Below, in pieces: positions 186 through 16,296 of a stretch of 64,000 nt of DNA. How positions within the stretch are numbered: position 1 is the stretch's first letter; every line of letters begins with the position of its first letter. The notes beneath the pieces are model-generated. The model was given only the letters and a program-made list of their open reading frames with translations. It had not been told where the DNA came from and did not search any database. This stretch comes from Candidatus Obscuribacteraceae bacterium. Its GTDB lineage: Bacteria > Cyanobacteriota > Vampirovibrionia > Obscuribacterales > Obscuribacteraceae. A program made the position numbers and the translations under genes. The DNA is taken from contig JBGASG010000009.1 of NCBI GenBank assembly GCA_044229845.1, forward strand, positions 135,269 to 199,268. The letters run 5' to 3'.

Positions 186-3080
186 ATGGCTCGTCAGGTC
201 TTTATGAACTCTGCAATCCGACGTTTTCGTCCCACCAAACTGAGCGGGCTGTTTTTGCTGGCGATGCTGGCAGCGCCGGCTGCAGTTGCCGCTCCGCCTG
301 GCTTCGACCAGCACATGCAAAACGCGCTCCAGGCGATTGCCAAAAAGGACGCCGCCCTGGCTGACAAAGAAGTGGAGGCTGCCGAAAAGGCGCTGGGTCC
401 GACCAAGCCGGCAGACGAGTATTCCCAGCTCTTGCTGCAACGCGGATTAATTCGTGTAGCCTCTGGTCGACCAAAGGAAGCGGTCCCTTTCTATACGCAG
501 TCTATAAACACCCTCATAAAGGCATTTGGACCAAAGAGCAGCAAGCTGGGAATTCCGTACGCCATGAGAGGGCTTGCCTACTGCGACAGCGACGGTTACA
601 AGGAAGCCGCCGAAGACCTGGCCAGCTCGTTTGCCCTGATGCAGCCAGACAAGAGCAACCAGGCGCCGATATATCTGCGCGAGCTGGCAAGTCGGGTGAC
701 CCCAATCAGAATAAAACTTGGTGGCGGTCCATTAATCATGCCGATGCTGGTCAATGGCATCGCCGCCATGGACCGCTGCGGATTGGGAACCGCCCGAGAA
801 ACTGGTTCTCTGATCACGATGCTGGGTGATACTTACAAAGCTGAAGGGAAAATCCAGGAGGCTGAAGCGAAGTTTCGCAAAGCGATTGAAATTTTTGCCG
901 CTGCCAAGGCAGACGACGACGAATTAAGTCTGCGACTGGCCCTTGCCGCCCTCTACGAGGATCAGGGGCGATTCGCCGATGCGGACGAACAGATCAAACC
1001 AGCGCTGGCGATTGCTGATCGTGTGTTTGGAGCTAAAAGCACTCAAGCAGCCAAGGTGCTCGAGCGCCAGGGCATTTTATATTGCAGCTGGGGCAAAGTA
1101 ACCGAGGGCGAAGCGAAACTAAAGAAAGCACTGGTGGTGCTTGAAAAAGATCCTAACAACCCTGAGCAGATGTTCTGTTGGATGGGACTGAGCTCGGCCG
1201 CGCAGTCTCGCGGCGACCTGGCTGAAGCGGAAAATGCCATGAAGCAGGCGTTCGCCTTTGCAGAGAAATCGACCAACATTCTTCCTGAAGATGCAAGCAC
1301 TGTCGATAACGCCATGGCCGATGTGCTGATAGCGCGCAATAAGTATGTTGAGGCCGAGGCGGTGCTCAACAAGTCGCTGCAAACGGCGCAGAAGGTAGCC
1401 GCCGAGAGCCCGCTGGTGGCAGATGCCTATGCGTCGCTCGCCAAATTGAATTTGTCGCAGGGCAAATACAAGGAAGCCGAAGACTACATCATGAAAGCCC
1501 TGATTATGCGGCGCAATCTTTTTGGCGACATCAATCGTCTGGTGGCGCGAGACTTGCGTCGCGGGGCTTTGATCTATGACGATCAGAAACTGTTTACCAA
1601 ATCAGCCCCCTGTTATGACCTGTCGCTGCAGATTCTCAACAAAGTCGCGCCCGAAAATGATTTCGATAAAATCAGACTCTTAGAATGCTGGGGGCTGAGC
1701 GAAAACGCGCAAGCCAAATATTCCGACGCCGAGAAACGCATGCTGCAAGCCGCTGCAATGGCGGAGGTCGTGTTCGGCAAAGACTCTCGCGAATCGCTTT
1801 CTTATGTAGAGCTACTGGGAAAGAACGACTTTGACGCTGGTAAGTATGAGCAGGCAGAAACTCGCCTGCTGCAAGTGCTGACGAAACTGGAAAAACTTGA
1901 CGGACCTACTTCTCCGTCGCTGGGCAGCGTGCTCACTCACCTGTTGCACACCTACAACGAAATGGGCAACGCCACCATGGCGCAGGAGATACAGGCGCGC
2001 CTCGACAAGATCAAGGGCGCCCTGCCTGGTGCACCGCCGGCGGTGGTGAAAGCCAATCCGGTCATTACTGATGTGGCCGAGATGCCAAAATCCGGCAAGC
2101 CTGTGGCAAACAAGTGGGCTGTCGTGATTGGTATCAGCAACTTCCGCGACTCCTCAATCAACCTGAAGTATGGAGCAAAAGATGCGAAAGACTTCGCCAA
2201 TTTTCTGGTCGCTGAGCAAAACTTCAAACCTGAGAACGTCAAACTGCTGATTGACGAGAATGCCAATCGCATGAACATCGCCGATGCCCTTGGCGAAGGC
2301 TTTCTGGTCCGAAACGCGCGGGAAGACGACCTGGTAGTGATTTTCGTTTCCAGCCATGGTGGCGCCGATATCACCAAGTCGTCAGGAAGAAACTTTTTGT
2401 GCTCCTATGAATCAAACGCGCAAAATCTTCTTATGACCGGCATCACGATGGAATGGTTCTCCCAGTATCTGACCGACCGCGTTCCGGCTCAGCGCGTGGT
2501 TGTCTTCCTTGATGTCTGTCACAGCGGCGCGATCACCGGCGACAAAGGATTGACTCGCGAGCAGCAGAGCTTCGATGTTTTGAGCAGTGCACCGGGGCGC
2601 GGACAGATCTTTATCGCCTCCAGTTTGTCCAGCCAGCTTTCGTGGGAGTCGAAGCGCTACGAAAATGGCGTGTTCACGCATTCACTAATGGATGCCCTGC
2701 GCGCCAACGGGCGGCAGACAAAGTTGAGCGAAGCTTTCGACCGGTTGCGTAAGCAAGTCGAAGACGAGGTCCTCTCCGACCGCCAACAAATGCAAACGCC
2801 GCTCATGAAGCGAACCTGGAACGGCGATGACCTACGCCTTTCCGAAGCCTCCGGTACGATGCTCGTCAACACGGGGGCGGCGTCACCATCGGCCCAGCCA
2901 GTCATCCCCACGGCCATGCCGGCGTCCAATACCGCCGCACCTGTGCCCAATGCCAATCTAATTTTTCAACCCTCCGCGTCCTCTCAGCCAACGGCTGTCC
3001 AGGCTCCGGTGCGCCGATTGCCAGCCCGGGCGCCCGTTCTTAAGGTGCCGCCGGTGCCCGGCAGCCAGGACGATTTCTAA
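186..3080 (+). CDS. Signal-peptide TPR-repeat protein with C-terminal caspase-like (peptidase C14) domain
   Basis: N-terminal hydrophobic signal and many TPR-like helices. The C-terminal domain has KWAVVIGIS, SSHG (His) and DVCHSG (Cys), followed by a Pro/Ala-rich tail. Start may be a few codons later. Confidence 0.85.
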   Translation: MARQVFMNSAIRRFRPTKLSGLFLLAMLAAPAAVAAPPGFDQHMQNALQAIAKKDAALADKEVEAAEKALGPTKPADEYSQLLLQRGLIRVASGRPKEAVPFYTQSINTLIKAFGPKSSKLGIPYAMRGLAYCDSDGYKEAAEDLASSFALMQPDKSNQAPIYLRELASRVTPIRIKLGGGPLIMPMLVNGIAAMDRCGLGTARETGSLITMLGDTYKAEGKIQEAEAKFRKAIEIFAAAKADDDELSLRLALAALYEDQGRFADADEQIKPALAIADRVFGAKSTQAAKVLERQGILYCSWGKVTEGEAKLKKALVVLEKDPNNPEQMFCWMGLSSAAQSRGDLAEAENAMKQAFAFAEKSTNILPEDASTVDNAMADVLIARNKYVEAEAVLNKSLQTAQKVAAESPLVADAYASLAKLNLSQGKYKEAEDYIMKALIMRRNLFGDINRLVARDLRRGALIYDDQKLFTKSAPCYDLSLQILNKVAPENDFDKIRLLECWGLSENAQAKYSDAEKRMLQAAAMAEVVFGKDSRESLSYVELLGKNDFDAGKYEQAETRLLQVLTKLEKLDGPTSPSLGSVLTHLLHTYNEMGNATMAQEIQARLDKIKGALPGAPPAVVKANPVITDVAEMPKSGKPVANKWAVVIGISNFRDSSINLKYGAKDAKDFANFLVAEQNFKPENVKLLIDENANRMNIADALGEGFLVRNAREDDLVVIFVSSHGGADITKSSGRNFLCSYESNAQNLLMTGITMEWFSQYLTDRVPAQRVVVFLDVCHSGAITGDKGLTREQQSFDVLSSAPGRGQIFIASSLSSQLSWESKRYENGVFTHSLMDALRANGRQTKLSEAFDRLRKQVEDEVLSDRQQMQTPLMKRTWNGDDLRLSEASGTMLVNTGAASPSAQPVIPTAMPASNTAAPVPNANLIFQPSASSQPTAVQAPVRRLPARAPVLKVPPVPGSQDDF

Positions 3081-3090
3081 ATTTAAAGCG

Positions 3091-3145
3091 TCTCCCAAGT
3101 TTCTCCACATTTTTCATCGTCGCTCCACCAGCTCTCCCTAGGATG
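3091..3145 (+). promoter_or_regulatory. Putative promoter of the pqqD-like operon with phased CTCC(A/C) direct repeats
   Basis: CTCC repeats at 3092, 3103, 3123 and 3134 (about one helical turn phasing), TAGGAT at 3139-3144, then a small hairpin and an AGGAG RBS. Confidence 0.55.
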
Positions 3146-3185
3146 TACGGTGTGGCGGTCGAATGCCGCCTGCAGGAGAAGGGAT

Positions 3186-3458
3186 ATGCAGCAAAAAGTA
3201 AATGACGTGCTGAGCAGAATAAACGTCGGCGAGCGGCTGTCCAAGCTGGCTGTCAGTTCGACGGGCTTCGTTTTCGACCCGCAAACCGGACAGAGTTTCA
3301 CACTGAACCACAGCGGTCTCACCGCCCTTGATGCTTTGAAGCGCACCGCGTCCACCGAGTATGCGGCTCGAGCGTTAGCCGATACCTACAAGATTCCGCT
3401 GGAGATAGCCGAGACCAGTCTCGACGCGTTTCTGGTGCAACTGGGGAGATATCTTTAA
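3186..3458 (+). CDS. PqqD-family / RRE-like small protein
   Basis: ATG at 3186 after AGGAGAAGGG. Pattern LAVSSTGFVFDPQTGQSFTLNHSG...ALADTY..P.E.A...LDAFLVQL is typical of the PqqD winged-helix fold. 90 aa. Confidence 0.75.
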   Translation: MQQKVNDVLSRINVGERLSKLAVSSTGFVFDPQTGQSFTLNHSGLTALDALKRTASTEYAARALADTYKIPLEIAETSLDAFLVQLGRYL

Positions 3459-4577
3459 ATGACGACGACAATCAATATTAATCGCACGTGGAAGCATTTC
3501 AATGTAGCCATAACCGGAGTCAATGCCAGAGCCGACAGTCCCGGTCCGGGGTGCGCAGTTGCCCGCTGTATCAGAGAGCACCGCGCGTTTCGCGGGAGAG
3601 TGATCGGTCTGGGCTATGATGTACTCGATGCCGGACTGTACGCCAGAGATCTCTGCCACGCAGGCTATCTGGTGCCTTACCCCTCCGCCGGGCAGGAAGC
3701 ATTACTCGAGCGCATCAAAGACATACATGCGCGCGAGGGTCTCGATGTAATCATTCCCTGTCTGGATGCCGAAATCCAGAACTTCATCGGCATCAGACCG
3801 GAACTTACCCGCATGGGCATCCAAATGCTGATTCCCAGCCGCGATCAATTTATGCTGCGCGCCAAGGATCATCTTGATGCCTTCTGCAAATCGATCGGAG
3901 TGCTCGCTCCCGAGAGTCGCACACTAACAGATCCGCAATTCTTCGACACCTGTGAGAGCGATGGATGGCAATATCCCTTGATCATCAAAGGCATCTTTTA
4001 TGATGCAACGGTGGCATACAGCGCCGTTGACGCCAAGGCGATCTTCCACCGCATGGTTCATTCCTGGGGCTATCCGGTGCTGGTGCAGAAGATCATTCCC
4101 GGCGATGAATTTGACCTGGCTGGCATAGGGGATGGTAACGGTGCGCTGATCGGCGCAGTAACGATGCGCAAGCGCGCCCTTACTGAAAAAGGAAAGGCGT
4201 GGGCGGGGGTAACTGTTGTAGACGAGGCGATTGCGGAGGTGGCGGAAAAACTGGTTCGCGCTCTCAGTTGGCGCGGACCGCTGGAAGTAGAAGTGATGAA
4301 AGGAGAAGACGGAAAGATATATTTGATAGAGATAAATCCGCGTTTTCCTGCCTGGATCTATTTAAGTCATGCTGCTGGAAGAAACCTGCCGGTGGCGCTG
4401 CTCAAAGTTCTATCCGGCGACGAAAATCTCGAATTGGCAAAACCGAACACCGGCACATTTTTCATCCGCTACGCACAGGAAATTATTGTGCAGCTGCCGG
4501 AATTTGAATCGATGTTTGTCGATGGTTTTTCTGCGCCCGAAAATGACGCGCTGACGGCGACAACCCGATCTGCGTAA
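3459..4577 (+). CDS. ATP-grasp ligase (carboxylate-amine ligase) of unknown substrate
   Basis: DVIIPCLDAE, YPLIIKG, VLVQKIIPGDEF and YLIEINPRF motifs. Starts immediately after the pqqD-like stop codon. Confidence 0.85.
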   Translation: MTTTININRTWKHFNVAITGVNARADSPGPGCAVARCIREHRAFRGRVIGLGYDVLDAGLYARDLCHAGYLVPYPSAGQEALLERIKDIHAREGLDVIIPCLDAEIQNFIGIRPELTRMGIQMLIPSRDQFMLRAKDHLDAFCKSIGVLAPESRTLTDPQFFDTCESDGWQYPLIIKGIFYDATVAYSAVDAKAIFHRMVHSWGYPVLVQKIIPGDEFDLAGIGDGNGALIGAVTMRKRALTEKGKAWAGVTVVDEAIAEVAEKLVRALSWRGPLEVEVMKGEDGKIYLIEINPRFPAWIYLSHAAGRNLPVALLKVLSGDENLELAKPNTGTFFIRYAQEIIVQLPEFESMFVDGFSAPENDALTATTRSA

Positions 4578-4591
4578 GCGCTCGGATCGAA

Positions 4592-4619
4592 CACGCGAAA
4601 AACATCAGCTGATCGCGTG
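4592..4619. repeat. 28-bp dispersed palindrome, copy 1
   Basis: CACGCGAAAAAC-ATCA-GCTGATCGCGTG, in an intra-operon spacer. Confidence 0.8.
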
Positions 4620-4639
4620 CCTGCGTTGGGGAGGATTGT

Positions 4640-6094
4640 ATGAGTATCGAACCTGTTACCACCACTTGGGAACCGCCGTATATTCAGCCGCACCGCATCG
4701 GTGCCGCCAATAAGTTCGGCAACCGCACCGTGAGAGATGACGTGACGCACAATGTATTTGGACTGCCGATCAATGATTTGATCGAGCGTTTTGGCTCGCC
4801 GCTGTTCGTCACTTCAGAACACCAGTTGCGGGCAAATGTGCGCCGCATCACGCGAGCTTTCGAACGTCGATACAGCCCGGTTGTGCACGGCTGGTCCTAC
4901 AAGACCAACTATATCAGTGCCATCTGCAACATCCTGCATCAGGAGGGCTCGTGGGCCGAGGTGGTCTCGGCTTTCGAGTATGAAAAAGCGAGAGCTCTGG
5001 GTATGCCTGGACATCGCATTATTTTCAACGGACCAAATAAGGGGCGAGCGATCTTAGAACGTGCCATCGCCGAAGGTGCGCACATTCACATAGATCACAT
5101 GGACGAGCTAAAACTGATCGAAGCCATCGCCGAAGAGCAGGATCGCATCGTGCAGGTGGCGCTGAGGCTGAATTTCGATACCGGTTATACGGAGCCGTGG
5201 AGCCGCTTTGGCTTTAACGTCGAAAATGGACAGGCCCATCAGGCCGCTAAGATGATCGCGCTCAGTCCGCATCTGCGACTCAACGGATTGCACAGCCATA
5301 TCGGCACCTTCGTCCGCGAACCGCGAGCATACGCCGAGCAAGTGAGGGTGATGTGCGCGTTCATGCGCGAACTGGAAACCTCGCAGCACATAACTATCGA
5401 AAATATCGATATTGGCGGCGGGCTGCCCTCGCGCAATGCCTTGCAAGGAGTCTATCTTCCTCCCGAACAGGCTATCCCCGACCTCAATGAATACGCCGAT
5501 GCCATTTGCGATGCACTCGTCGAACGCACCGCATATCGCAAAGAATTGAACAAGCCATTGCCGCGTTTGATTTTTGAAAGCGGACGGGCCGTAGTTGATG
5601 ATGCGCAAGTTTTGATTGCGACAGTCGCCGGCACGAAACGACTGCCTGACGGCCGTCGCGCCGCCATACTGAATGCCGGCACCAACTTGATGTTCACCGC
5701 CTACTGGTACAACCATCAGATCAAGATAACTCGCGAACCGACAGGCAGCTACGAAGATACAGTGCTCTACGGACCGTTGTGTATGAATATCGATGTGGTG
5801 CGCCACAGCGTCTACCTGCCGCCGCTGAACGCCGGCGATCACCTGGTAATCAGTCCGGTCGGTGCCTACAACAATACGCAGTGGTTGCAATTCATCGAGT
5901 ATCGACCAAATGTGGTGCTGGTCCAGGAGGGCGGTGAGTGTTCCGTCATTCGTCGCGCCGAAAATCTGGAATCGATGATGTCCCACGACGAACTGCCTGA
6001 GCGGCTGCGCGACCCATTCGCCAACCTGAGCACCAGTGACATGCAGCAGATGCGCACGTGCTCCGACTTGCGCGGCGCCAGAGAAAGAATTTAG
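4640..6094 (+). CDS. Fold-type III PLP-dependent decarboxylase (DAP decarboxylase/BtrK-like)
   Basis: WSYKTN (PLP lysine), HSHIG, DIGGG, ESGR, GPLCMNID and GAY motifs. GGAGG RBS. Confidence 0.85.
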   Translation: MSIEPVTTTWEPPYIQPHRIGAANKFGNRTVRDDVTHNVFGLPINDLIERFGSPLFVTSEHQLRANVRRITRAFERRYSPVVHGWSYKTNYISAICNILHQEGSWAEVVSAFEYEKARALGMPGHRIIFNGPNKGRAILERAIAEGAHIHIDHMDELKLIEAIAEEQDRIVQVALRLNFDTGYTEPWSRFGFNVENGQAHQAAKMIALSPHLRLNGLHSHIGTFVREPRAYAEQVRVMCAFMRELETSQHITIENIDIGGGLPSRNALQGVYLPPEQAIPDLNEYADAICDALVERTAYRKELNKPLPRLIFESGRAVVDDAQVLIATVAGTKRLPDGRRAAILNAGTNLMFTAYWYNHQIKITREPTGSYEDTVLYGPLCMNIDVVRHSVYLPPLNAGDHLVISPVGAYNNTQWLQFIEYRPNVVLVQEGGECSVIRRAENLESMMSHDELPERLRDPFANLSTSDMQQMRTCSDLRGARERI

Positions 6095-6110
6095 TTGCGA
6101 GGTCGATGAT

Positions 6111-8258
6111 ATGTTAAACCGGTTACTCGAAGGGTATGGTTCGTTTTTTGCACTCAACCATCCCGCCTCAAAATTTTTGATCTTCATTGCCGCTATGCTG
6201 CAGCCGCTCTCTGGGCTATTCGGTCTGGTCGGAGGCTTGAGTGTGATACTGGCCCGCAAGCTGCTCAACTTCCAATCCGAGACAGAACGAATTGAGACTG
6301 TCAACGGCATTCTTCTGGGCATGTTGATTGGTTCACTGTACGCGCCTGACTATCGCACCGTGCTTCTCACCATGTGTGGTGGCGCCCTGGTGGTTTTGAC
6401 CAGCGCCATTCTGACCGAAACCCTGGCCCGCCAGTATCGGCTGCCATTGCTAGGACTTCCCTATGGGCTCGCCGCATACATTCTCTTGCCGGTGGCCGCT
6501 AACCTGCGACTCGATCCAGCCATGCCGGCATACACATACTCTCTGCCCATGCTGCCGATTCAGGCCTTTCTCTGGCTGTATCCCATGGGCGCTATGTATT
6601 TCAACGGCACCACAATCGGGGGACTCCTGGTGCTCACCGCATTCGCTATATCTTCTCGGTATCTTGCCATCATCGCCGTCGGCAGTTCGATTCTCTGCTG
6701 CGCGTTCCTTGAGATATTGGCCGTGCCGTCCAATACGACACTATTTATGGTGGCACAAATGAACGGTGTCCTCAGCGCTTGCATTATCGGTGGGCTGTGT
6801 GCAACGCCCGGCAAACGCAGCCTGCTGGTAGCAGTATCAGCAGCTGCGTGCGCCTGTGTCCTTTCTTTGTGCCTGTCGCGGTTGCTCTGGGTTTTCGGGC
6901 TGCCGGTATTGGCGCTGCCGTTTGTGATTTCAACCTACGCCTGTATGCTTTCGCTCAACCCCGGTCGTGGGAAAGCGTGGACTTATTTCTGGTTGCCCGC
7001 GCCGGCGCTGCCTGAACGCAGCATGGAGCAGATAGAAACGGCCAAGGCTCGCGGTGTCGATGTGCGGAGCATAGCTCTGAAACCGCCGTTCGACGGTGAG
7101 TGGCAAATCTACCAGGGCTTCGGCGGCAAACACACGCACACCGGCAACTGGCAGTATGCCCTCGATTTCTTTCAGACTCAGGAAGAACGCAGCTTCTGGA
7201 CAGATGGACGCCTGCTTTGCGATTACTATGCATTCGGCAAACCGGTACTGGCACCAGCGTATGGCACCGTCATCGATTGCCGCAACGACTTACCTGATAA
7301 TCCACCAGGCGAGGTCGATGCCGTCAACAACTGGGGCAACTTCATCTTGATTCAGTTGGATTTTGGTCCATGTGTACTGCTCGCTCACCTGCAGAAAAGT
7401 TCTCTCAAAGTAGCACCGTACGCCCGCGTACATCCCGGACAGGTAATTGCATCGGTCGGCAACTCCGGCCGGTCGCCGCAGCCCCACTTGCATGTGCATG
7501 TGCAGGAGACGGCAATTATTGGAAGCAAAACACTGCCATTTCATCTGACGTCGGTGACGACCGTTGCCAGTGACGCACCAACCGACACGCGAAATACATT
7601 CAGTTTGCGTGCTTGCCCTAAAGAAGGCGATACGATTGCAACGCCGCGCCGGAATCCCGCAATTAAGCGTGCTTTGCGACTGATCGTCGGAACCCAGTTT
7701 CAATTTGAAGTGGCGCAGGCAAACGCCCCGACCGCCGTGTCGCGCCTCGAGGTCAAGCTGGACATCTATGGACAGTTCTGGCTCGAGAGCGCGACAGGCG
7801 CCAGGGTGGCTTTTGTTTGCAACGATGATTTCGTTGCCTTTTACAACCGTACTGGTCCCAAAGACATGCTTCTGGACGCATTGATCCTCAATATCGGATT
7901 GACTCCTTTTTGCGAAGGCGGTCTGGAGTGGACCGATGTGGCATCGCGGCGCTTACTGCCCATGAATAGTTTCACCCGACTGGCACACGCCCTCTGGCAT
8001 CCTTTGAAAGCCTGCGCTCTGGGCAAATTTCAACGCACTTGGGATCCTCTGACGCAGCTCTGGCATCAAACCTGCGAATACAGTTTAGGAGGCGACAAGT
8101 GGCGCACTCATGCGAAACTATGCGAGGCGAACGGACTCGTTTGCGTCTCGCTGTTCAAAAAGGGAGCACCGTTGCTTACAGCAAGATTGATCGGTTACGG
8201 CATTCGCGAAGACTATGGAATTCCGGAGCAGCAAACATCTCTGTTGGCAGCCGTCTGA
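6111..8258 (+). CDS. Urea-transporter-like membrane domain fused to M23 metallopeptidase plus C-terminal domain
   Basis: About 10 hydrophobic segments with urea-transporter-like repeats (NGILLG..LPLLGLPY; NGVL..LPVLALPF). M23 motifs H..G.WQYALDF, VLAPAYGTV, GN, AHL and GNSGRSPQPHLHVH. ATG 6111 follows GAGGT. Confidence 0.8.
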   Translation: MLNRLLEGYGSFFALNHPASKFLIFIAAMLQPLSGLFGLVGGLSVILARKLLNFQSETERIETVNGILLGMLIGSLYAPDYRTVLLTMCGGALVVLTSAILTETLARQYRLPLLGLPYGLAAYILLPVAANLRLDPAMPAYTYSLPMLPIQAFLWLYPMGAMYFNGTTIGGLLVLTAFAISSRYLAIIAVGSSILCCAFLEILAVPSNTTLFMVAQMNGVLSACIIGGLCATPGKRSLLVAVSAAACACVLSLCLSRLLWVFGLPVLALPFVISTYACMLSLNPGRGKAWTYFWLPAPALPERSMEQIETAKARGVDVRSIALKPPFDGEWQIYQGFGGKHTHTGNWQYALDFFQTQEERSFWTDGRLLCDYYAFGKPVLAPAYGTVIDCRNDLPDNPPGEVDAVNNWGNFILIQLDFGPCVLLAHLQKSSLKVAPYARVHPGQVIASVGNSGRSPQPHLHVHVQETAIIGSKTLPFHLTSVTTVASDAPTDTRNTFSLRACPKEGDTIATPRRNPAIKRALRLIVGTQFQFEVAQANAPTAVSRLEVKLDIYGQFWLESATGARVAFVCNDDFVAFYNRTGPKDMLLDALILNIGLTPFCEGGLEWTDVASRRLLPMNSFTRLAHALWHPLKACALGKFQRTWDPLTQLWHQTCEYSLGGDKWRTHAKLCEANGLVCVSLFKKGAPLLTARLIGYGIREDYGIPEQQTSLLAAV

Positions 8259-8278
8259 GGAGCAATAAAGCTCGATCG

Positions 8279-9811
8279 ATGAAGCTCAATATCGCGCACA
8301 AGTTGATGATGATTATGATGCTGACCACCGGAATTGTGGTCGGGCTGATCTTCGGATTGACGCGCTTCAGCATCCTCAGCGGCTTCACCAACTATGTTGA
8401 GCGCGTTGAACTGTCGACTCTCAGCACCTTTGCCGGCAATCTTGCCCGCCGGTATGAGCGAGGAGGCAACAGCTGGGATTTTGCACGAAACGACGAGTCG
8501 CAAATCTGGTGGATACTGGGCGCCAGCGAGATGAGCGATCTGCATCACAATGTTCCGCCACCGCCGGGGGAGCTACCAAACCCTCATCCCCCGCCTGGCA
8601 GCGGTCCGCCGCTCGAGGCACCGGGCGGCGGACCACCCTTCTTGCAATTTTTGGGTGCGCCGCCGGGCACCAAACCCGGCACCATGCCACCATCGTTTCC
8701 TGAACATCGAATGGCTTTCTTTCGCCGCATTGGTCTTTTCGACCAGAGCGGCAAAATAGTCTGGGGCAACCTGGCCTCCAGAAACAGCAAACAGATGCTG
8801 GCCCTGACCGCCGGCGGCAAACAGATCGGGTACCTGAAACTGGTGCCTAACGATTTGATGTCTAAAGATATCGAGGGACAGTTCATTGCCGAGCAGAGCC
8901 GCAACCTGTTGATCGTCAGCGCCGTGGCGTTTCTTGCCGCAGTTGGAGCTGCATTTTTGCTCTCTCACGATCTGGTGCGAGCCATAAACACTCTCGTGCA
9001 GGGTACCCGCAAACTGTCGACCGGCAATTTCGAGACCCGCATTTCACTCAATCGCGGCGACGAACTCGGTGAGCTTGCCGAAGACTTCAACAGCCTGGCC
9101 AACACGCTGCAGCAGCAGGACACTGCCAAGAAACAGTGGATCACCGACACGTCGCATGAACTGCGCACTCCGATCGCTATATTGCGCGCGCAGGTGGAAG
9201 CGTTTCAAGATGGTGTGCAACAAGTAAATCCTCGCACCCTGGAAATATTGCACAGCGAAATCATCACGCTGGGAAAACTGGTTGATGATCTGCATGACCT
9301 GGCGCGCTCTGATCTCGGACAGCTGCGTTATGATTTCGTGCCGGTCGATGTAGGGGTGGTTTTGCTGGATACGGTGGAAGCTTTCAATGAACGTTTCGCC
9401 AGCAAGAAGATCAAGCTGGATGCCAGTGCCGTCGCCGACTTGCATTGCATCGTGGAAGCGGATAGCACGCGGCTGACACAGGTGTTTTCCAATCTATTGG
9501 AGAACTCGCTACGATACACAAATGAAAACGGCGGTGTTAAGATCTCGTCCATGCAATTGCCGGGCGAGTTGGCTATCTATTTCGACGATTCTGAACCCGG
9601 TGTGTCGGCGCAGTCAATCTCACAGATTTTCGATCGGTTCTATCGCAGCGAAAGTTCACGCAATCGCAAGCATGGTGGTGCCGGGTTGGGGCTGCCGATC
9701 TGCAAAGCTGTCATTGAAGCGCATCATGGTACCCTGACCTCGACCCGCTCTCAAATGGGCGGTCTGCGCATCACTATCCGCCTGCCGTTGAAGGAGCTGT
9801 CCAAATGGTAG
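8279..9811 (+). CDS. baeS: BaeS-like sensor histidine kinase (2 TM, HAMP, HisKA, HATPase)
   Basis: TSHELRTP H-box, NLLENSLRY N-box and GAGLGL G-box. Pro-rich periplasmic region. Start re-set to ATG 8279. Confidence 0.85.
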   Translation: MKLNIAHKLMMIMMLTTGIVVGLIFGLTRFSILSGFTNYVERVELSTLSTFAGNLARRYERGGNSWDFARNDESQIWWILGASEMSDLHHNVPPPPGELPNPHPPPGSGPPLEAPGGGPPFLQFLGAPPGTKPGTMPPSFPEHRMAFFRRIGLFDQSGKIVWGNLASRNSKQMLALTAGGKQIGYLKLVPNDLMSKDIEGQFIAEQSRNLLIVSAVAFLAAVGAAFLLSHDLVRAINTLVQGTRKLSTGNFETRISLNRGDELGELAEDFNSLANTLQQQDTAKKQWITDTSHELRTPIAILRAQVEAFQDGVQQVNPRTLEILHSEIITLGKLVDDLHDLARSDLGQLRYDFVPVDVGVVLLDTVEAFNERFASKKIKLDASAVADLHCIVEADSTRLTQVFSNLLENSLRYTNENGGVKISSMQLPGELAIYFDDSEPGVSAQSISQIFDRFYRSESSRNRKHGGAGLGLPICKAVIEAHHGTLTSTRSQMGGLRITIRLPLKELSKW

Positions 9812-10512
9812 AAAACGGCGGCAGCAGCTATATCTTGATTGTCGAAGACGAGCTGGTGATTGCCGGGATTCTGGCTGATTACTTGAAACAATCAGGTTTC
9901 CGCACCAAACATGTGGACAACGGCATCGATGCCGTCGATGCCGTCAAGAAAGAAGCGCCGGATCTGGTCCTATTAGATGTAATGCTGCCCGGAAAAGACG
10001 GACTGGAAGTCTGCCGTGAGATTCGTACTTTCTCGACTGTGCCTGTGATTATGGTAACCGCCAAAGTTGATGAGATCGACAAACTGCTAGGGCTGGAGCT
10101 CGGTGCCGATGATTACATCTGCAAGCCCTTCAGCCCGCGCGAAGTGGTGGCACGAGTGAAGGCTTCTTTTCGGCGCGCCAAGTACGCAGCCACCACCGAC
10201 ACCGGCAAGCGCCAGCTGATCGAGATAGATGAGCCGCGCGCGCGAATCACGGTAAGTGGGCACCGGCTCGACCTGACTCCCACAGAATATCGGCTTCTGA
10301 AACTGCTCGCCAGCAACCCGGGGAGAGTCTACTCTCGCGCACAACTTCTTGATCTTTGCTACCAGCAAGAGCAACAAATATTCGATCGGGTAATCGACAG
10401 CCACGTTAAGAACGTGCGGCGCAAGCTGGCAAAGGTGCTGTCAGGACAGGACGTCATTCATGCTGTGTACGGTGTCGGCTATCGCTTCGAAATCGATAGC
10501 GGTCAGTCCTGA
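9805..10512 (+). CDS. baeR: BaeR-like OmpR-family response regulator
   Basis: IVEDE, LLDVMLP, GADDYICKPFSPRE and winged-helix LTPTEY..RVIDSHVKN..YGVGY. Overlaps the kinase stop. Confidence 0.88.
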   Translation: MVENGGSSYILIVEDELVIAGILADYLKQSGFRTKHVDNGIDAVDAVKKEAPDLVLLDVMLPGKDGLEVCREIRTFSTVPVIMVTAKVDEIDKLLGLELGADDYICKPFSPREVVARVKASFRRAKYAATTDTGKRQLIEIDEPRARITVSGHRLDLTPTEYRLLKLLASNPGRVYSRAQLLDLCYQQEQQIFDRVIDSHVKNVRRKLAKVLSGQDVIHAVYGVGYRFEIDSGQS

Positions 10513-10644
10513 AAGCAATGTTGGCGCGCTGCTAACTCGAGGCAAAGTAATTGCAAAGGCTGCGTAAGAGACGTCGATTGGGCGTTTTCGGGCTTTGCAA
10601 ATTTCGCAAAGGTGACATTATGGAGGTGTCAGAGGAGCTGAGCG

Positions 10645-11553
10645 ATGAATCTCCGAAAGTCTCTACACGTTACCGCAATCATTCTCTCCTCTGTCATCTT
10701 TATAGGCGCGAGTCATGTTGCTGGTGCTGCCGGCGAGAGTTCAGTTCCCGCTGGAAAAGTAGCCGGCGGTTCCAGTAACAAAATTGCAGCTGACCTGATG
10801 CGTCTGAAAACATACAAAGATAGCGAGAAAGTGATAGCCGACCCGCAGGTCCAAAAGCTTCTGAAAGGCGTGATGGGCACTTCTCTCAATCAACTCCACA
10901 ATCAGACGCAGGGCTATGAAGAGCCGCAAGTGACCGGCAACGAAATGATTTTGCACGGTGGTGTTGCCGGTTTGTACGGACAGATGGAAGCCGTGGTTTC
11001 TCTGAATCTGGCGACGAGTGAAACATGTGTAGCCCTGCTCAACGCCGAAGATCTGACGATTTTCAGCAAAGTGTCTGATCGCACCATGCTTTCGGGTGGC
11101 GTTAAGAGTTTCATCAAAGATATGGAGGCGCAGGGCGCTCGCAAAATAACTTTCTCGAAGCCCACAACTAATCCGATTGCGCTGGAAACCGGCATTATCA
11201 AGACGGACAAAAATCTCAATGTCGCGATCGTCACCGGCACTTTTCAGCGCCAGGGCACAGAGCGGTGGGCTGATTCGACTCTGAAACTACAGGCACTGCC
11301 CGGTGGAAAAATCAAATTCGAGCTGGAATCGGCTCAGGGAGCGAGAACCGGCGGTGTCAGCGGCACGGCTGCAATCAAGAGCGGAGTGGCAAAGTTTTAT
11401 ACAGATGGCGGTAGCACCATCACACTCAAAATTAGTGGTGCCCAGGCCGATGTCTCAATTGACGATAAGGGTGATTATGGCGGCGTGGGCGTGACGCCTG
11501 AAGGGCACTATTTGAAGAAGTCGAGTGCCGTGCCCAAGTTTTCCGCACACTGA
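10645..11553 (+). CDS. Secreted hypothetical protein
   Basis: 302-aa ORF with GAGGAG RBS and N-terminal signal peptide. No family recognised. Confidence 0.75.
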   Translation: MNLRKSLHVTAIILSSVIFIGASHVAGAAGESSVPAGKVAGGSSNKIAADLMRLKTYKDSEKVIADPQVQKLLKGVMGTSLNQLHNQTQGYEEPQVTGNEMILHGGVAGLYGQMEAVVSLNLATSETCVALLNAEDLTIFSKVSDRTMLSGGVKSFIKDMEAQGARKITFSKPTTNPIALETGIIKTDKNLNVAIVTGTFQRQGTERWADSTLKLQALPGGKIKFELESAQGARTGGVSGTAAIKSGVAKFYTDGGSTITLKISGAQADVSIDDKGDYGGVGVTPEGHYLKKSSAVPKFSAH

Positions 11554-11589
11554 TCAGAGTCCGTCGGTATCTCCCCGGCGGATTTCTGT

Positions 11590-14500
11590 TTATTGCAGCT
11601 CGGCCATAGCCACGGCATAGGCGAGCGTGTTGCGATCACCGTGCTCTTTTACCCAGTCCAGTTGCGACTGCGCTTCGTCCTTCTCGCCGGTCAGCTTCGA
11701 TTTGATGCCGATAAAAGTGTGCGCTTCCGTGAGGCGCGCAGCTCCCTTTGTGCTATTCAGCAGCTCTTCTGCTGAAATGTCTCCGGCTAGATACTTAGCT
11801 TCCGGCATCGGCCAGCCGGTTATTTGAATGCGATACAGAGAATCGCGCAGCTTGAGCTTCGCTTCGCCTTCGTTCGATTCTTTCGCGCGAATCAGGTATT
11901 TCCAAATTTCTGCGTTCAGCTGATCGTTGCCGTCTTCGGCGTGCTCGACGTATTCATCCATGGCTTTCATCGCTTCGGCGGGATTGGATTCATAGAGCAG
12001 AGCTACGGCGCGCAGCAAGGGCGGATATGTCCAGTTGGGTGACGAAGCTTGAGCTTTTTCAGCCGCGCTGAGCGCTGTGCTGTAGTCGCCGTGCAGGAGA
12101 CATATTTCGGCTTTCTTCGTCAGGAAATATCCTGGCTTTTTACTGTATTCAAGTCCGCGTTTGATTTGTTGCGCCGCTCTTTGATCGTCTTCCATCGCGA
12201 TGTAGCACTCGGCGTTCTTCTGATAGGGTGCCGCCCAGGTCGGTAGCGCATGCTGTGCCATAACACAATATTCTTGTGCTTCTTTAGGCTTGCCTGCCTT
12301 CAGCAAAGCGTCAGCGGCTGCCAGAAGCGCCTTGGGATCGCTTTTGGTCATGCGCACATAATGCTCGTAGTCATCAGCTGCCCGTTCGTAATCCTCTTCC
12401 ATCATGAACAAGTCGCCACGCAACTGGTACGCTCGCGGGAACTTAGCATCGAATGTCAGCGCAGCCGTCAAGTCTTGCATAGCATCTTCGGTGTTGCCGA
12501 GTTTTAGATAGACGTTGGCGCGAACAACATAGAAATTAGAGTTGGAAGGATCGAGTTCGATGGCATTTGAATAGTGATCGAGCGCCTCGTCGTAGTTGCC
12601 GAGCATGTGGTAACACAGACCCAGGTTTAGCTCGGCGTCGGCACTGGGTTTGTGCCGTTCTCTGATGTAAGCGTTGTAATCGGAAATCGCATTGGTCCAG
12701 CGTTTCAAGTCTGTGAGCGCGTAGGCGCGTGTGAAATATGCATTCACCAGAGTGCGGTCCAGCTCGAGCGCTCGTGTCGCATCGGCAACTGCCAGCTCTG
12801 GTTTGCCGAGCTGCGTGTAGATTTGTGCACGGTAAAGATAAGCGCGTCCATATTTCGGGTCGTGTCTGATGGCGGCATCGACGCCTTTGATCGCTTCGCC
12901 GAGTTTTTTCAATTTTCGCTTTGCGTACGCCCAGTCAGTCCAGGCTTTTGGATCGTTCAAGTCTTGTGCGCTTTCGATTACCTTGCTCGACTGTGTAAGC
13001 AGCTGGGCCGCAACGTCGTTGGTCAAGCGTTTCAGGCGCTCATCGCCTGGATGTGATTGTTCCAGATCGCCAAGGGCATCAAGCGCGTCCGCATATCGTC
13101 CTTTCTGTGCGGCAAGGCGCGCCCAATCAAGGCAGTAATCAACATCCTGAGTTCGATAACTGCGAGCCAGATCGTAGTATTTGAGGGCATTTTCAGTATC
13201 TTGCTGGCGCAGTGCGACGTCGCCGAGAATGTGATAAGCCTCGGCATTTTCTTTGTCGAGATTGATCGCCTTTTGTGCTTGCTCTTCGGCTCCGGCGTAG
13301 TCTTTTAGAATCAGCAAACAGCGCGCGTAATCAGAAAATATCTCAGGGTTGGGAGCCAGCCCAGCCGCTTGGGCGAGATGCTGTTTTGCTGCCTCGTTGT
13401 CTTTAATTTTCAGTTCAGCAAGTCCGCGCGTGTGTAAATACAACTCCCGCATCTTGTCGGAGCGAATTTCATCCTGTATTTGATCGAGCTCTTCGATCGC
13501 TTTGGACGCCTCTTGCCGCTCAACCAGGCAGCGCGCCATATATAACCTGGCTTCAACGTTTCCGGGAGCGAGTCGCTTGACGCGGTCGAAATCCTCTACC
13601 GCTTTGTCATAGGTGAGTTGCTCCATCTCGGCGCGTGCGCGCAAGAAGTATGCTTCCGAGTTGTTCGGATACTTGTCGATCACACGCGTGGATAATTCGA
13701 TCGTGTCCCAATCATCCTCTTTCTTGGCGGCATCTTTAGCTGCCAGCAAGAGGCGCTCTTCCTCGGATTTGGTTAAGCGGGTCAATCCCGTCAAGCCGGA
13801 GTTGACGTCGATCGTGGAGTGGTTCCATAACGGGATGGTCAGCGCTGCCACTCCGATCGCCACTGCCACCACCACACCGCCGACGATGGCAACGGTCTTC
13901 ATAGGCGAACGTTGCGCCGGCTCATCAAGTGTCTCAGGATCTACTTGCGGGAGGTCCTGCGTATTAACAGCGGAGTTCTGCTCGGTTGGTGCCCGGTCTT
14001 CGCCTTCTTCTTCGTCATCGTCGTAGTAATCATCCAGATAGATGCGTCTTCCCGAGCTGCGGCGTTTTGCGAAGTCGTCGTCGCTCGAGGCGGGCACCGG
14101 CAAGTTCTTTGATTCGAAAATCGGCTTCGGACCGCTGGCTGACGGTGAATCAATGGACATGCGCGTCGAGTCTTGCGGCTCCGGCTCTGCACTGGCGCTG
14201 CCGCCCGAGACGAACGGCTTCAGCGGCCGGCCTGGCTGGCTGACGGCCCGGGTAGAGTCTTGCGGTGGTTCTTCATCGGTGGACGCCGGTAAAACTGACG
14301 GTGCTACGGATTTTCTCTGGTCGCCGGTAGAGATTGCCGCCCGCGTGGAATCTTGCGGCGGTTCGGCGGTGGTTTCGTCCGGCACTGCCGCCGGTGCTGC
14401 GTCGTGCACTGTATCTGGTGCTAGTGGTGGATCGACCTCCGGCAGATTGTGATTGCTGGCGCCTGGCGGCATCGCCCCTGGTGGTATAGCACCGAGCGGC

Positions 14501-15132: not shown

Positions 15133-15954
15133 TCATTTTGCCGGTGGTGTCGGCTCCAGCAATTTGGCATCCACCAGAATTCTTTCCGTAATGTCCCGGG
15201 CGCGACGTCCCCAGGCATTGTCTTTGCTCTTGATATTGGTGGCAAACACATAGGGATGTCCATCGTGCACGACGTAGCCGACAAACCAGCCGAGCACTCG
15301 CTTGCCGTCTTTTGCATCGGTGCCGGTCTTGCCGGCGAACACCGTATCTGGTGTCTCCTTCAGTTTGATCAATGTCTTGACTGTGTCCTGCGACGAAGTT
15401 GAAAATGGCAGCTTGTCGAAATAGAGCTTTTTGAGAAACTCCACCTGCTCGTCCGCTGAAATCTTCAATGAAGAATCAAGCCAGAATGTGGTCAGTCCTC
15501 CCGATAAATCGCGATTGCCGTAGTCAACGTCGTCGATGTACTTTTGCATGCGCGGCATACCGACGTCACGGGCCACGTTTTGAAAATACCAGACGACCGA
15601 ATCAGTGACGGCAGATTGCAATGTCTGGTCTTTGTTCCAATTGTCCATGGGGCGTCGTTTGCCGTCCCACTTCATCTTATGATCGGCGCCGGTCAGTACT
15701 CCCGAGTCCAAACCGGCCAGTGAGTTGAATATCTTGAAAGTAGAACAGGGCGAAATCTGCTCGGCACAACGCTTCTTGTTGTAGCGAATGGTGTGTCCTG
15801 ATTCCAGGTCTACAAATACAAAAGCACCGTCGTAACCGGTGAAGTATTTCGGCAGACTCTCAGTCTTTACCGATGTCTCTGTTTCTAAGTCTTTAGCATA
15901 AGATGGAGACGTCAATACAAGGGCAGCGACAAGCGGTAACAGCTGTTTCATCAT
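15133..15954 (-). CDS. Class D (OXA-type) beta-lactamase / penicillin-binding protein
   Basis: STFK, SVV, YGN, W.DSSLKIS and KTG motifs, plus a signal peptide. Confidence 0.88.
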   Translation of the reverse strand: MMKQLLPLVAALVLTSPSYAKDLETETSVKTESLPKYFTGYDGAFVFVDLESGHTIRYNKKRCAEQISPCSTFKIFNSLAGLDSGVLTGADHKMKWDGKRRPMDNWNKDQTLQSAVTDSVVWYFQNVARDVGMPRMQKYIDDVDYGNRDLSGGLTTFWLDSSLKISADEQVEFLKKLYFDKLPFSTSSQDTVKTLIKLKETPDTVFAGKTGTDAKDGKRVLGWFVGYVVHDGHPYVFATNIKSKDNAWGRRARDITERILVDAKLLEPTPPAK

Positions 15955-16166
15955 GGTACGTTCCTTTGCCCTGGGGAGATAGGAACAATGTACAGGGTCA
16001 GTGTTAAATGCAATGTCGAATGTGAAGGTCTAACCAGCTTCTAACCCGCAGCCAACAAATCTCCTCCCAGAGCGCGGTGGTGCACCGGGCACCAGATATG
16101 ATGCCCGGCGCTAGGGCACCGCGTTCGCTTCAGTACACGGCATGTTAGCGGCAAGCTGTGAATCGG

Positions 16167-16197
16167 GTGTGTAGAAAGTGTGGAGTTTGTGTGGAGT
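16167..16197 (-). promoter_or_regulatory. Three 11-bp-phased direct repeats (CTCCACAC on minus strand)
   Basis: GTGTGTAG at 16167, GTGTGGAG at 16178 and 16189. TAACAT -10-like hexamer at 16147-16142 faces the OXA gene. Confidence 0.45.
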
Positions 16198-16296
16198 CGG
16201 GCACGTACTTTCCACCTTGTTTCGTGCTACTCGAACACTATGATCGAGTCCGAGGTAAGCGGTGCACGCAACATCTCTTTGGGAGCGTAAACCGAA

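Follow-up and report, generated by a model that had tools for sequence, protein, structure and literature searches.

A conserved six-gene cassette from Obscuribacteraceae combining a PqqD-like protein, an ATP-grasp ligase, a FigC-like decarboxylase and a urea-transporter-type channel fused to an M23 peptidase, with its own sensor pair and a putative regulator box

The DNA analysed here is a stretch of 64,000 nucleotides (nt) from contig JBGASG010000009.1 of a Candidatus Obscuribacteraceae bacterium, a member of a non-photosynthetic lineage; the whole stretch is referred to below as the window, and the 5.16-Mb genome from which it comes as G000. Its main subject is a cassette of six genes that begins at position 3186. 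The six open reading frames (ORFs) called in this part of the window all lie on the forward (+) strand, with intergenic gaps of 0, 62, 16, 20 and -7 nt, and the ATG at 3186 is preceded by a GGAG-type ribosome-binding site. The genes, with the evidence used to name them, are the following.

3186..3458, + strand: PqqD-like protein, 90 amino acids (aa), of the type known as the recognition element (RRE) of peptides that are synthesised ribosomally and modified after translation (RiPPs); Pfam PqqD
3459..4577, + strand: ATP-grasp ligase, PylC-like or 'carbamoyl-phosphate-synthase-like' type, 372 aa; Pfam, NCBIfam
4640..6094, + strand: fold-III pyridoxal phosphate (PLP) decarboxylase, FigC-like, 484 aa; Pfam, NCBIfam, relatives in the PDB
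6111..8258, + strand: fusion of a urea-transporter (UT) channel, an M23 zinc peptidase and a beta-barrel; Pfam, AlphaFold model
8279..9811, + strand: BaeS-like sensor histidine kinase, 510 aa; Pfam, NCBIfam, synteny
9805..10512, + strand: BaeR-like response regulator of the OmpR family, 235 aa; Pfam, NCBIfam

All six proteins gave Pfam matches above the gathering score, namely PqqD (29.9 bits against a gathering score of 23.4, E 7e-7) for the first, ATPgrasp_Ter and ATP-grasp_3 for the ligase, Orn_Arg_deC_N and Orn_DAP_Arg_deC for the decarboxylase, UT (95 bits) and Peptidase_M23 (49.6 bits) for the fusion, HAMP, HisKA and HATPase_c for the kinase, and Response_reg and Trans_reg_C for the regulator. 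In NCBIfam, all six fall under the curated cut-offs. The co-oriented arrangement, the domains and the gaps given by an earlier sequence-only reading of this DNA were thus confirmed by ORF calling and Pfam. The same reading had seen no precursor peptide, radical S-adenosylmethionine (SAM) enzyme or acyl carrier protein nearby, and our results agree: ten neighbouring proteins of the window gave no Pfam hit to a radical SAM or carrier-protein domain, carrier domains were also absent from the recurrent neighbour-gene clusters of related loci, and when 1002 small ORFs from 81 loci were clustered, only two clusters of three members were obtained, both within three close relatives, so that no small ORF is conserved near the core beyond these. 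A role in defence was also considered, and PADLOC returned no match for the cassette proteins.

In order to determine how widely the arrangement is conserved, the representative genomes of 185,579 species were scanned with peptide patterns taken from the ligase alignment. At least 600 stretches were returned, at least 542 of which encode a relative (the total of pattern-matching stretches in the collection is estimated at about 1300), and the best 80 loci were kept. These best 80 belong to the Obscuribacterales, Magnetococcales, Accumulibacter, Methylococcales, Legionella, Zetaproteobacteria, Geothrix, Solibacteraceae, Desulfobulbaceae, Bacteroidia and Vulcanimicrobiota, and the four-gene core from the PqqD-like gene to the fusion is colinear in the Obscuribacterales, several classes of Pseudomonadota, the Acidobacteriota, Desulfobacterota, Bacteroidota and Vulcanimicrobiota. 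Counting, within the best 80, only those loci with room for the gene in question, the decarboxylase lies 3' of the ligase in 73 of 73, and the channel-peptidase fusion comes next in 64 of 66, being inverted upstream in one locus (L038) and not found at a Legionella locus (L059). A PqqD-like gene was found 5' of the ligase by tblastn in 67 of 78, and several of the misses proved to be divergent copies that were recovered by ORF clustering.

Of 41 related genomes, six (G000, G001, G004, G016, G017 and G020) contain a homologue of the fusion, either complete or partial. All six genes are syntenic in G001, G016 and G020, and a contig end falls within the fusion gene in G004; in other genera of the family, the synteny is kept at protein identities of 45-71%. 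Because synteny persists in other genera and colinearity in other phyla, the arrangement is far beyond chance, and the gene-neighbourhood comparison that the sequence-only reading had suggested shows that the four-gene core does co-occur in other genomes. Near-identical DNA was found in 16 DNA sequencing runs from nine studies, and the host lineage is common in activated sludge. In G017 (98% complete; loci L013 and L024), the cassette is apparently decaying: an in-frame TGA cuts the fusion at about residue 476, with loss of the barrel, no orthologue of the cassette regulator (E <= 1e-50) was found in the genome, and the sensor pair is absent.

The last two genes encode a two-component system that belongs to the cassette. 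The response regulator is only 43% identical to its nearest paralogue in its own genome and 48-58% identical to cassette-linked regulators of other phyla; since it is closer to the latter than to the former, the regulator travels with the cassette. Its promoter region contains a distinctive repeat, and a second copy of the same arrangement lies at the left edge of the window, in front of a divergent gene for a secreted tetratricopeptide repeat (TPR) protein.

3087..3147, + strand: candidate regulator box with four tandem direct repeats of 11-nt period (about 3090-3132); motif search, 54.4 bits
95..155, - strand: repeat box and -10-like hexamer 5' of the divergent TPR gene; weight matrix, 30.0 bits
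1..60, - strand: 5' end of the secreted TPR gene, about 240-250 aa; homology; the gene continues beyond the window (G000:C14:134612-135328)

The box consists of three to four tandem 11-nt repeats with a CTCCA core, followed about 30 nt further on by TAGGAT or TATGAT. In the cassette promoter, TTCTCCA is found at 3100-3106, and the -10-like TAGGAT at 3139-3144 lies 41 nt ahead of the ATG at 3186. Every Obscuribacterales locus examined, and one proteobacterial locus as well, has the box upstream of the first gene, and where the TPR gene leads the operon, it lies upstream of the TPR gene. A weight matrix was built from 19 loci, the cassette promoter being part of the training set and the TPR box of the window not. 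When the whole 5.16-Mb genome was scanned with this matrix, the cassette box scored 54.4 bits and the TPR box 30.0 bits, for which about 0.01 hits of that score are expected; the next matches (21.3, 16.7, 13.2 and 12.6 bits) did not exceed chance, so that the genome scan gave no further members of the regulon. The TPR genes of the other genomes also carry the box, with 37.4 bits in G004 (where the gene lies downstream of the regulator), 30.0 bits in G016 (adjacent to the cassette), 19.0 bits in G020 and 29.5 bits in G017 (on other contigs in both). The decaying locus of G017 thus still keeps the repeat box, together with an unlinked TPR gene that has a box of its own.

Repeats of the same type also lie about 100 nt 5' of the PqqD-like gene in some loci outside the Obscuribacterales, among them those of Accumulibacter and Vulcanimicrobiota; where the kinase-regulator pair is present, the distance from the first gene of the cassette is similar in these two groups and in the Obscuribacterales. 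A simple test for CTCC-N7-CTCC over the upstream kilobase, with a background of 0.05 per search space, was positive outside the Obscuribacterales in 8 of 11 loci with the regulator versus 1 of 30 without it; within the Obscuribacterales, the pattern was found in 13 of 14 loci with the regulator and also in the single locus without it. The suggestion that the cassette is tied to a two-component system is therefore upheld, in that the repeat box tracks the kinase-regulator pair across phyla. Activators of the OmpR/PhoB type bind tandem repeats that are spaced by a helical turn next to a -10 element, and since the tandem repeats and the -10-like hexamer fit this mode of binding, the box is most simply read as a putative site of the regulator, with the cassette and the TPR gene as its likely regulon. 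The repeat core may resemble the BaeR box of Escherichia coli. The repeat box across phyla and the box-bearing secreted TPR gene are newly found here.

The idea that the operon is induced by envelope stress, in contrast, amounts to a transfer of names: the kinase scored 407 bits on the BaeS_SmeS model (cut-off 500) and the regulator 296 bits on the BaeR model (cut-off 380), both below the cut-offs. The domain architecture is that of BaeSR and the OmpR family, and the tandem repeats with a -10 element are as in PhoB/OmpR-type activators, but the regulon differs from that of BaeSR in that it includes no efflux genes and consists of the cassette and a secreted TPR gene. The predicted periplasmic part of the kinase (8279-9811) has a long low-complexity stretch rich in proline and glycine, which is unusual for the sensor domain of a BaeS-like protein. 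Additionally, in four loci (L029-L032), tandem repeats of about 36-40 nt containing CGATATCGGTCC were observed about 250 nt 5' of the TPR gene, just upstream of the box.

The TPR protein at the window edge is 50% identical (E 3e-67) to the TPR protein that precedes the PqqD-like protein in other Obscuribacterales, many of whose loci have a secreted TPR gene of about 250 aa located 0-17 nt upstream of the PqqD-like gene. Orthologues (E <= 1e-20) were found in exactly the six cassette-bearing genomes of the 41, which are related and hence not independent, and some of which are only 58-89% complete. The best NCBIfam match of the TPR partner is NlpI, with 54 bits against a cut-off of 250. Outside the Obscuribacterales, other secreted partners follow the fusion: in Proteobacteria, a signal-peptide protein of about 300 aa with an aromatic C-terminus, which by these features is taken to be an outer-membrane barrel, is accompanied by a TPR protein, also secreted, of about 210 aa; Bacteroidia have a TPR protein fused to a barrel and a further TPR protein. 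Such a barrel together with a TPR protein follows the fusion in 25 of the 41 loci outside the Obscuribacterales that have room for them, and the barrel gene is absent from all 14 Obscuribacterales loci with room. No firm Pfam family was obtained for the outer-membrane barrel or for the TPR-barrel protein of Bacteroidia, the best match of the barrel partners being the Autotransporter beta-domain (E 0.003, in 1 of 14 proteins).

Two further genes adjoin the TPR gene of the window. Directly 3' of it, outside the window on the minus strand of G000:C14 (L100), lies a gene for a secreted protein of 441 aa with a YHYH-like motif and C-terminal GGGGFGPP repeats, which may be co-transcribed with the TPR gene. 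Between the divergent TPR gene and the cassette, at 186-3080 (+), lies a gene for a protein of 964 aa with a signal-peptide-like start, many TPR units and a C-terminal caspase domain (Peptidase_C14); outside the same genus (G001) it was not found, and it therefore resembles an insertion within the regulon's neighbourhood.

The decarboxylase is not the lysA of the genome, because the lysA model gives 424 bits for another gene, at G000:C18; the cassette enzyme reaches 219.6 bits on TIGR01048 (LysA; cut-off 297.9), nearly tied with its 223 bits on the FslC model NF041039 (cut-off 500). The possibility that the cassette enzyme was simply the diaminopimelate (DAP) decarboxylase of lysine synthesis is thereby removed. 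Among solved structures, its nearest relative is FigC (7kh2, E 6e-55), followed by DAP decarboxylase (E 3e-39) and BtrK (E 3e-21). Residues were mapped through HMMER alignments of 60 family members, with the roles assigned to them in FigC and DAP decarboxylases in section 8 of PMC7857480. The PLP lysine K88, the stacking histidine H220, the G259-261 loop, the catalytic C381 and M382 are invariant in the 60 sequences. According to the same section, the residue after the catalytic Cys is Asp or Glu in those enzymes to which a free side-chain amine binds; the cassette enzymes have Met382 in 60 of 60, and share with FigC both this Met and a Thr at the specificity helix. The arginine that binds the distal carboxylate of DAP is replaced by Thr353 in 59 of 60, and the FigC citrate contacts H357, R387 and N389 correspond to I384, Q414 and L/M416 in the cassette family.

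Since the pocket (F352, T353, W356, Y357, H359, N383, I384, Q414, W415, Q417 and F418) is nearly invariant across phyla, the whole family probably shares one substrate with a neutral distal group, which in turn suggests an amide-linked amino acid. A siderophore route was also considered and rejected, as the FigC citrate contacts are absent and no TonB-type receptor is present. The canonical fold of the decarboxylase is preceded by an N-terminal extension, about 40 aa long, that is conserved (W10, P13, N24, K25, F26 and G27).

The PqqD-like protein has the conserved motif LA.SE.GF.FDP.TG.SF..N, and its best NCBIfam match is the PqqD chaperone of lasso peptides (29 bits; cut-off 70). Its stop codon adjoins the ligase start in the window, and in other loci the two genes overlap by 4 nt (26 of 50) or by 1 nt (4 more). 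A role as an adaptor of the ligase, one of two roles that the sequence-only reading had offered, would fit this overlap; the other, that of a covalent carrier, finds no support, since the C-terminus is not conserved. The protein resembles the lasso-peptide B1 protein and PqqD in being small, stand-alone and translationally coupled to an enzyme, but neither a precursor gene nor a radical SAM enzyme, a lasso cyclase or a B2 protease, such as accompany RRE systems, is part of the cassette. In four of the 80 loci (L070, L075, L077 and L082), about 180 extra aa precede the PqqD-like domain; this extension matches TetR_N in L077 only (E 4e-6) and in the other three aligns to that of L077. In these loci, the helper may double as a DNA-binding regulator, and such a possible fusion of helper and repressor would take the place of the stand-alone protein. 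The ligase has 43 invariant columns across 62 sequences, and its best NCBIfam models are of the 'carbamoyl-phosphate-synthase-like' ATP-grasp type; on the Ddl/Van models, it scores 17-24 bits against cut-offs of 243-700. A protein atlas lookup returned only unnamed ATP-grasp clusters.

The fourth gene encodes three domains in a single chain.

6111-6959, + strand: UT-fold channel, residues 1-283; Pfam UT, AlphaFold/Foldseek
7068-7550, + strand: invariant linker helix and M23 zinc peptidase, residues about 320-480; Pfam, fold match
7566-8255, + strand: C-terminal beta-barrel, residues 486-715; AlphaFold model

The AlphaFold model of the fusion, built from 59 homologues, has a predicted local distance difference test score (pLDDT) of 93.7 and a predicted template modelling score (pTM) of 0.88. 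In Foldseek, the channel matches dvUT, UT-A and UT-B with template modelling (TM) scores of 0.76-0.83, and the M23 fold is matched as well. The ten-helix fold of the urea transporters is thus shared, but the residues that we take to be responsible for the selection of urea are lost: at the two LPxxTxPF-like positions, the signature Thr is present in 0 of 59 sequences (Ser, Gly or Cys in the first half, Ala, Ser or Val in the second), and the Gln and Glu at the pore ends are changed to Ser or Ala. The channel scores 57 bits on TIGR03441 (urea transporter; cut-off 275). The peptidase, in contrast, should be active, since H343, D352, H426, H459 and H461, its zinc-binding and catalytic residues, are present in 59 of 59 sequences.

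The last 230 residues, folded alone (pLDDT 94.4), form a beta-barrel with internal helices. It matches, best of all, the barrels at the N-terminus of vitellogenin (Z 10.8), ApoB (Z 9.4) and lipovitellin (Z 9.1), and LolA (about 7.5). These matches point to a fold class and not to a function, because membrane barrels match about equally well. The Foldseek TM scores are 0.36-0.43. The domain almost never occurs apart from M23; 22 stand-alone hits were mostly fragments or M23-barrel forms, and none of them had an informative name.

Four lines of evidence predict that the peptidase and the barrel are cytoplasmic. Inner-assigned loops of the channel average 9.1 Lys and Arg residues versus 1.7 for outer loops, and both ends of the UT domain lie on the rich side; the AlphaFold model has no further membrane helix past the UT domain; the soluble part contains 1.68% cysteine, close to the ligase (1.56%) and not to the outer-membrane barrel partner (0.38%), with no conserved cysteines; and a split M23-barrel protein on a 13.5-kb contig begins at the M23 domain without a signal peptide. 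UT proteins have an in-in topology, with which the prediction agrees. The catalytic domain is therefore not predicted to be extracytoplasmic, as it is in the M23 peptidoglycan hydrolases. The combination of UT and M23 domains in bacteria has been noted before, in the part of PMC12998343 (2026) that mentions it, without function or gene context.

Downstream of the regulator lies a gene (10645-11553, +) for a secreted protein of 302 aa without a family match. It was excluded from the cassette because it is confined to the genus and because no RNA contig bridges from the regulator gene into it. A strong terminator-like hairpin was found only after this gene (11557-11585), and RNA contigs that match the window exactly, from three libraries of two studies, begin at 10637-10651 and lie only within 10637-11600, which hints that the 302-aa gene has its own transcript, more abundant than that of the cassette. 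The missing RNA cover over the cassette itself carries no weight as evidence. Further downstream, at 15133-15954 (-), a secreted protein of 273 aa with an S-T-F-K motif scores 243.8 bits on a class D beta-lactamase model (cut-off 250) and 274 bits on a BlaR1 sensor-domain model; a weak box-like match of 13.2 bits, at chance level, lies upstream of it at 16141-16201 (-).

The pair of ligase and decarboxylase has two kinds of known counterparts. In Francisella rhizoferrin synthesis, FigA and FigC (FslA and FslC) carry out a ligation and then a decarboxylation, as given in the sections of PMC7857480 that treat the pathway. The cassette likewise has an amide ligase that would act on an amino acid and a fold-III PLP decarboxylase that would then remove the alpha-carboxylate, but FigA is an NIS synthetase (of the nonribosomal-peptide-synthetase-independent siderophore type) and the cassette ligase an ATP-grasp enzyme, and neither a PqqD-like protein nor a channel-peptidase fusion, a TPR partner or a sensor pair accompanies FigA/FigC. 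In butirosin and closthioamide synthesis, as far as described in the relevant parts of PMC7183216, BtrJ/BtrK/BtrI and CtaD/CtaF/CtaE combine an ATP-grasp enzyme with an adjoining fold-III decarboxylase of the Orn/DAP/Arg family, which acts only on the tethered amino acid, and such pairs can act iteratively; by analogy, an iterative logic of ligation and decarboxylation is possible in the cassette. These pathways need a phosphopantetheinyl carrier, however, which the cassette does not have, their decarboxylase is more distant, and they include no membrane channel or peptidase. A looser analogy is given by the peptidase-containing ABC (ATP-binding cassette) transporters, whose export conduit has a peptidase at its cytoplasmic entrance, as is also predicted here; they differ in having a C39 instead of an M23 peptidase, an ABC pump instead of a passive UT-type pore, and a double-glycine precursor, of which none is known for the cassette. 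As the sequence-only reading had supposed, no published function for the cassette emerged from a search of openly accessible full-text papers.

Taken together, these observations lead us to propose, tentatively and with appreciably less than even confidence, that the cassette is a sensor-controlled operon that makes an amine-ended product on a peptide handle, releases it with the M23 peptidase and lets it exit through the channel. The BaeSR-like pair would switch the operon on through the tandem 11-nt repeat boxes. In the cytoplasm, the ATP-grasp enzyme would act first, and a FigC-like removal of the alpha-carboxylate would follow, giving an amide-linked, decarboxylated product built on a peptide handle that the PqqD-like protein would hold. 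The M23 domain at the inner mouth of a re-purposed and widened urea-type channel would then cut the product free; the product would leave through this channel, and the TPR protein, with the barrel where present, would act beyond the inner membrane. A peptide handle is favoured because no carrier is present, yet a peptide-binding fold is coupled to the ligase and a peptidase is predicted at the inner mouth of the channel. The conserved N-terminal tail of the decarboxylase and the invariant linker after the UT domain (residues 284-319 of the fusion) are candidate handles. A stronger form of this proposal, which we consider unlikely, is a carrier-free, peptide-templated machine for make-and-release across the envelope, in which the PqqD-like protein would grip part of a protein that belongs to the system itself: an amino acid would be ligated to this part and decarboxylated, perhaps repeatedly, the cytoplasmic M23 domain would clip off the amine product at the channel mouth, the dedicated two-component system would control the whole, and the secreted TPR protein, together with the outer-membrane barrel in Proteobacteria and Bacteroidota, would receive the product.

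Several observations weigh against the handle proposal. No conserved precursor or carrier gene lies near the core in the 81 loci, and FigA/FigC work without a peptide-binding protein or a peptidase. Export is a putative direction of transport. The predicted cytoplasmic placement also runs counter to family habit, in that the periplasm is the typical location of M23 peptidases, of LolA-like barrels and of TPR adaptors; it is a prediction. The lysine of the decarboxylase tail is K in 55, R in 3, T in 1 and P in 1 of 60 sequences, the five replacements all coming from the Accumulibacter clade; as it is not invariant, it was rejected as an attachment site, which weakens that version of the handle. 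The correlation of box and regulator is inflated by the shared descent of promoter and sensor pair. Finally, RNA from the cassette was seen as fragments in one library at 95-99% identity, where carry-over of DNA is possible.

The first two of these points bear directly on a simpler scheme, in which there is no handle: two small free metabolites, for example an acid and, through its side-chain amine, ornithine, lysine or diaminobutyrate, would be joined by the ATP-grasp enzyme; the amine formed by the decarboxylase would then be exported by the channel, and the PqqD-like and M23 domains would act only as a scaffold or gate. We regard such a free small-molecule pathway as possible though doubtful. 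FigC is the closest solved relative, its pathway acts on free N-citrylornithine (in the parts of PMC7857480 that describe it), a UT-type pore suits small polar solutes, and the empty search for a precursor is what this scheme expects; but the citrate contacts of FigC are replaced by neutral residues, and a near-universal, translationally coupled peptide-binding fold and an invariant peptidase catalytic set would be left unexplained. The flow could also be reversed. In a route of uptake or salvage, which appears quite unlikely, the barrel and TPR proteins would capture a peptide or amide, the UT domain would import it, the inner M23 domain would cut it and the enzymes would convert it. UT channels conduct both ways, and the cytoplasmic side of the peptidase and the barrel and TPR genes of 25 of 41 loci outside the Obscuribacterales would suit such a route; against it stand the ATP-consuming ligase, which is biosynthetic, the absence of the barrel gene from the 14 Obscuribacterales loci, and a pore too narrow for peptides unless greatly widened.

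Two further schemes follow the habits of individual families. In the first, the enzymes would modify a peptidoglycan precursor, with the free D-centre of meso-DAP as one example of a site, and peptidoglycan would be trimmed by the M23 domain; most M23 enzymes, including those matched by the fold, cut peptidoglycan peptides, the sensor pair resembles BaeSR, and the best model for the TPR partner, although far under its cut-off, is NlpI. We see only a slight chance for this scheme, as the M23 domain is predicted to be cytoplasmic, the conserved set contains no Mur, flippase or lipid-II gene, the arginine for the distal carboxylate of DAP is absent and the Ddl/Van matches are marginal. The likeness to VanC/VanG clusters raised by the sequence-only reading has fared no better: these need a D-Ala-D-Ser ligase of the Ddl family, a membrane serine racemase and VanXY, none of which was found in the cassette, and the C-terminal domain and FigC-like residues of the decarboxylase, the marginal Ddl scores and the cytoplasmic M23 prediction all make the analogy weak. 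In the second, the cassette would be a RiPP-type pathway with an unlinked precursor and with M23 as the leader peptidase at the exporter, in keeping with the RRE-type PqqD fold and the fusion of a peptidase to a membrane conduit. This is the least probable of the schemes considered, given the 81 loci without a precursor, the narrowness of a UT-type pore and the need of the decarboxylase for a free alpha-amino acid moiety, which a ribosomal peptide would offer only after side-chain ligation.

Whichever of these schemes applies, the cassette brings familiar parts together against their usual rules: a UT fold without the urea filter, an M23 peptidase with a predicted cytoplasmic location and an RRE-type protein for which there is no precursor. 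Because it has its own sensor pair and a recognisable box, the regulon can be induced, followed with a reporter and mapped without knowledge of the product. Identifying that product would establish both a new way of making amine or amide metabolites and a new role for the UT fold, and if the peptide-templated form of the proposal were true, the cassette would represent a new kind of trans-envelope make-and-release machine.

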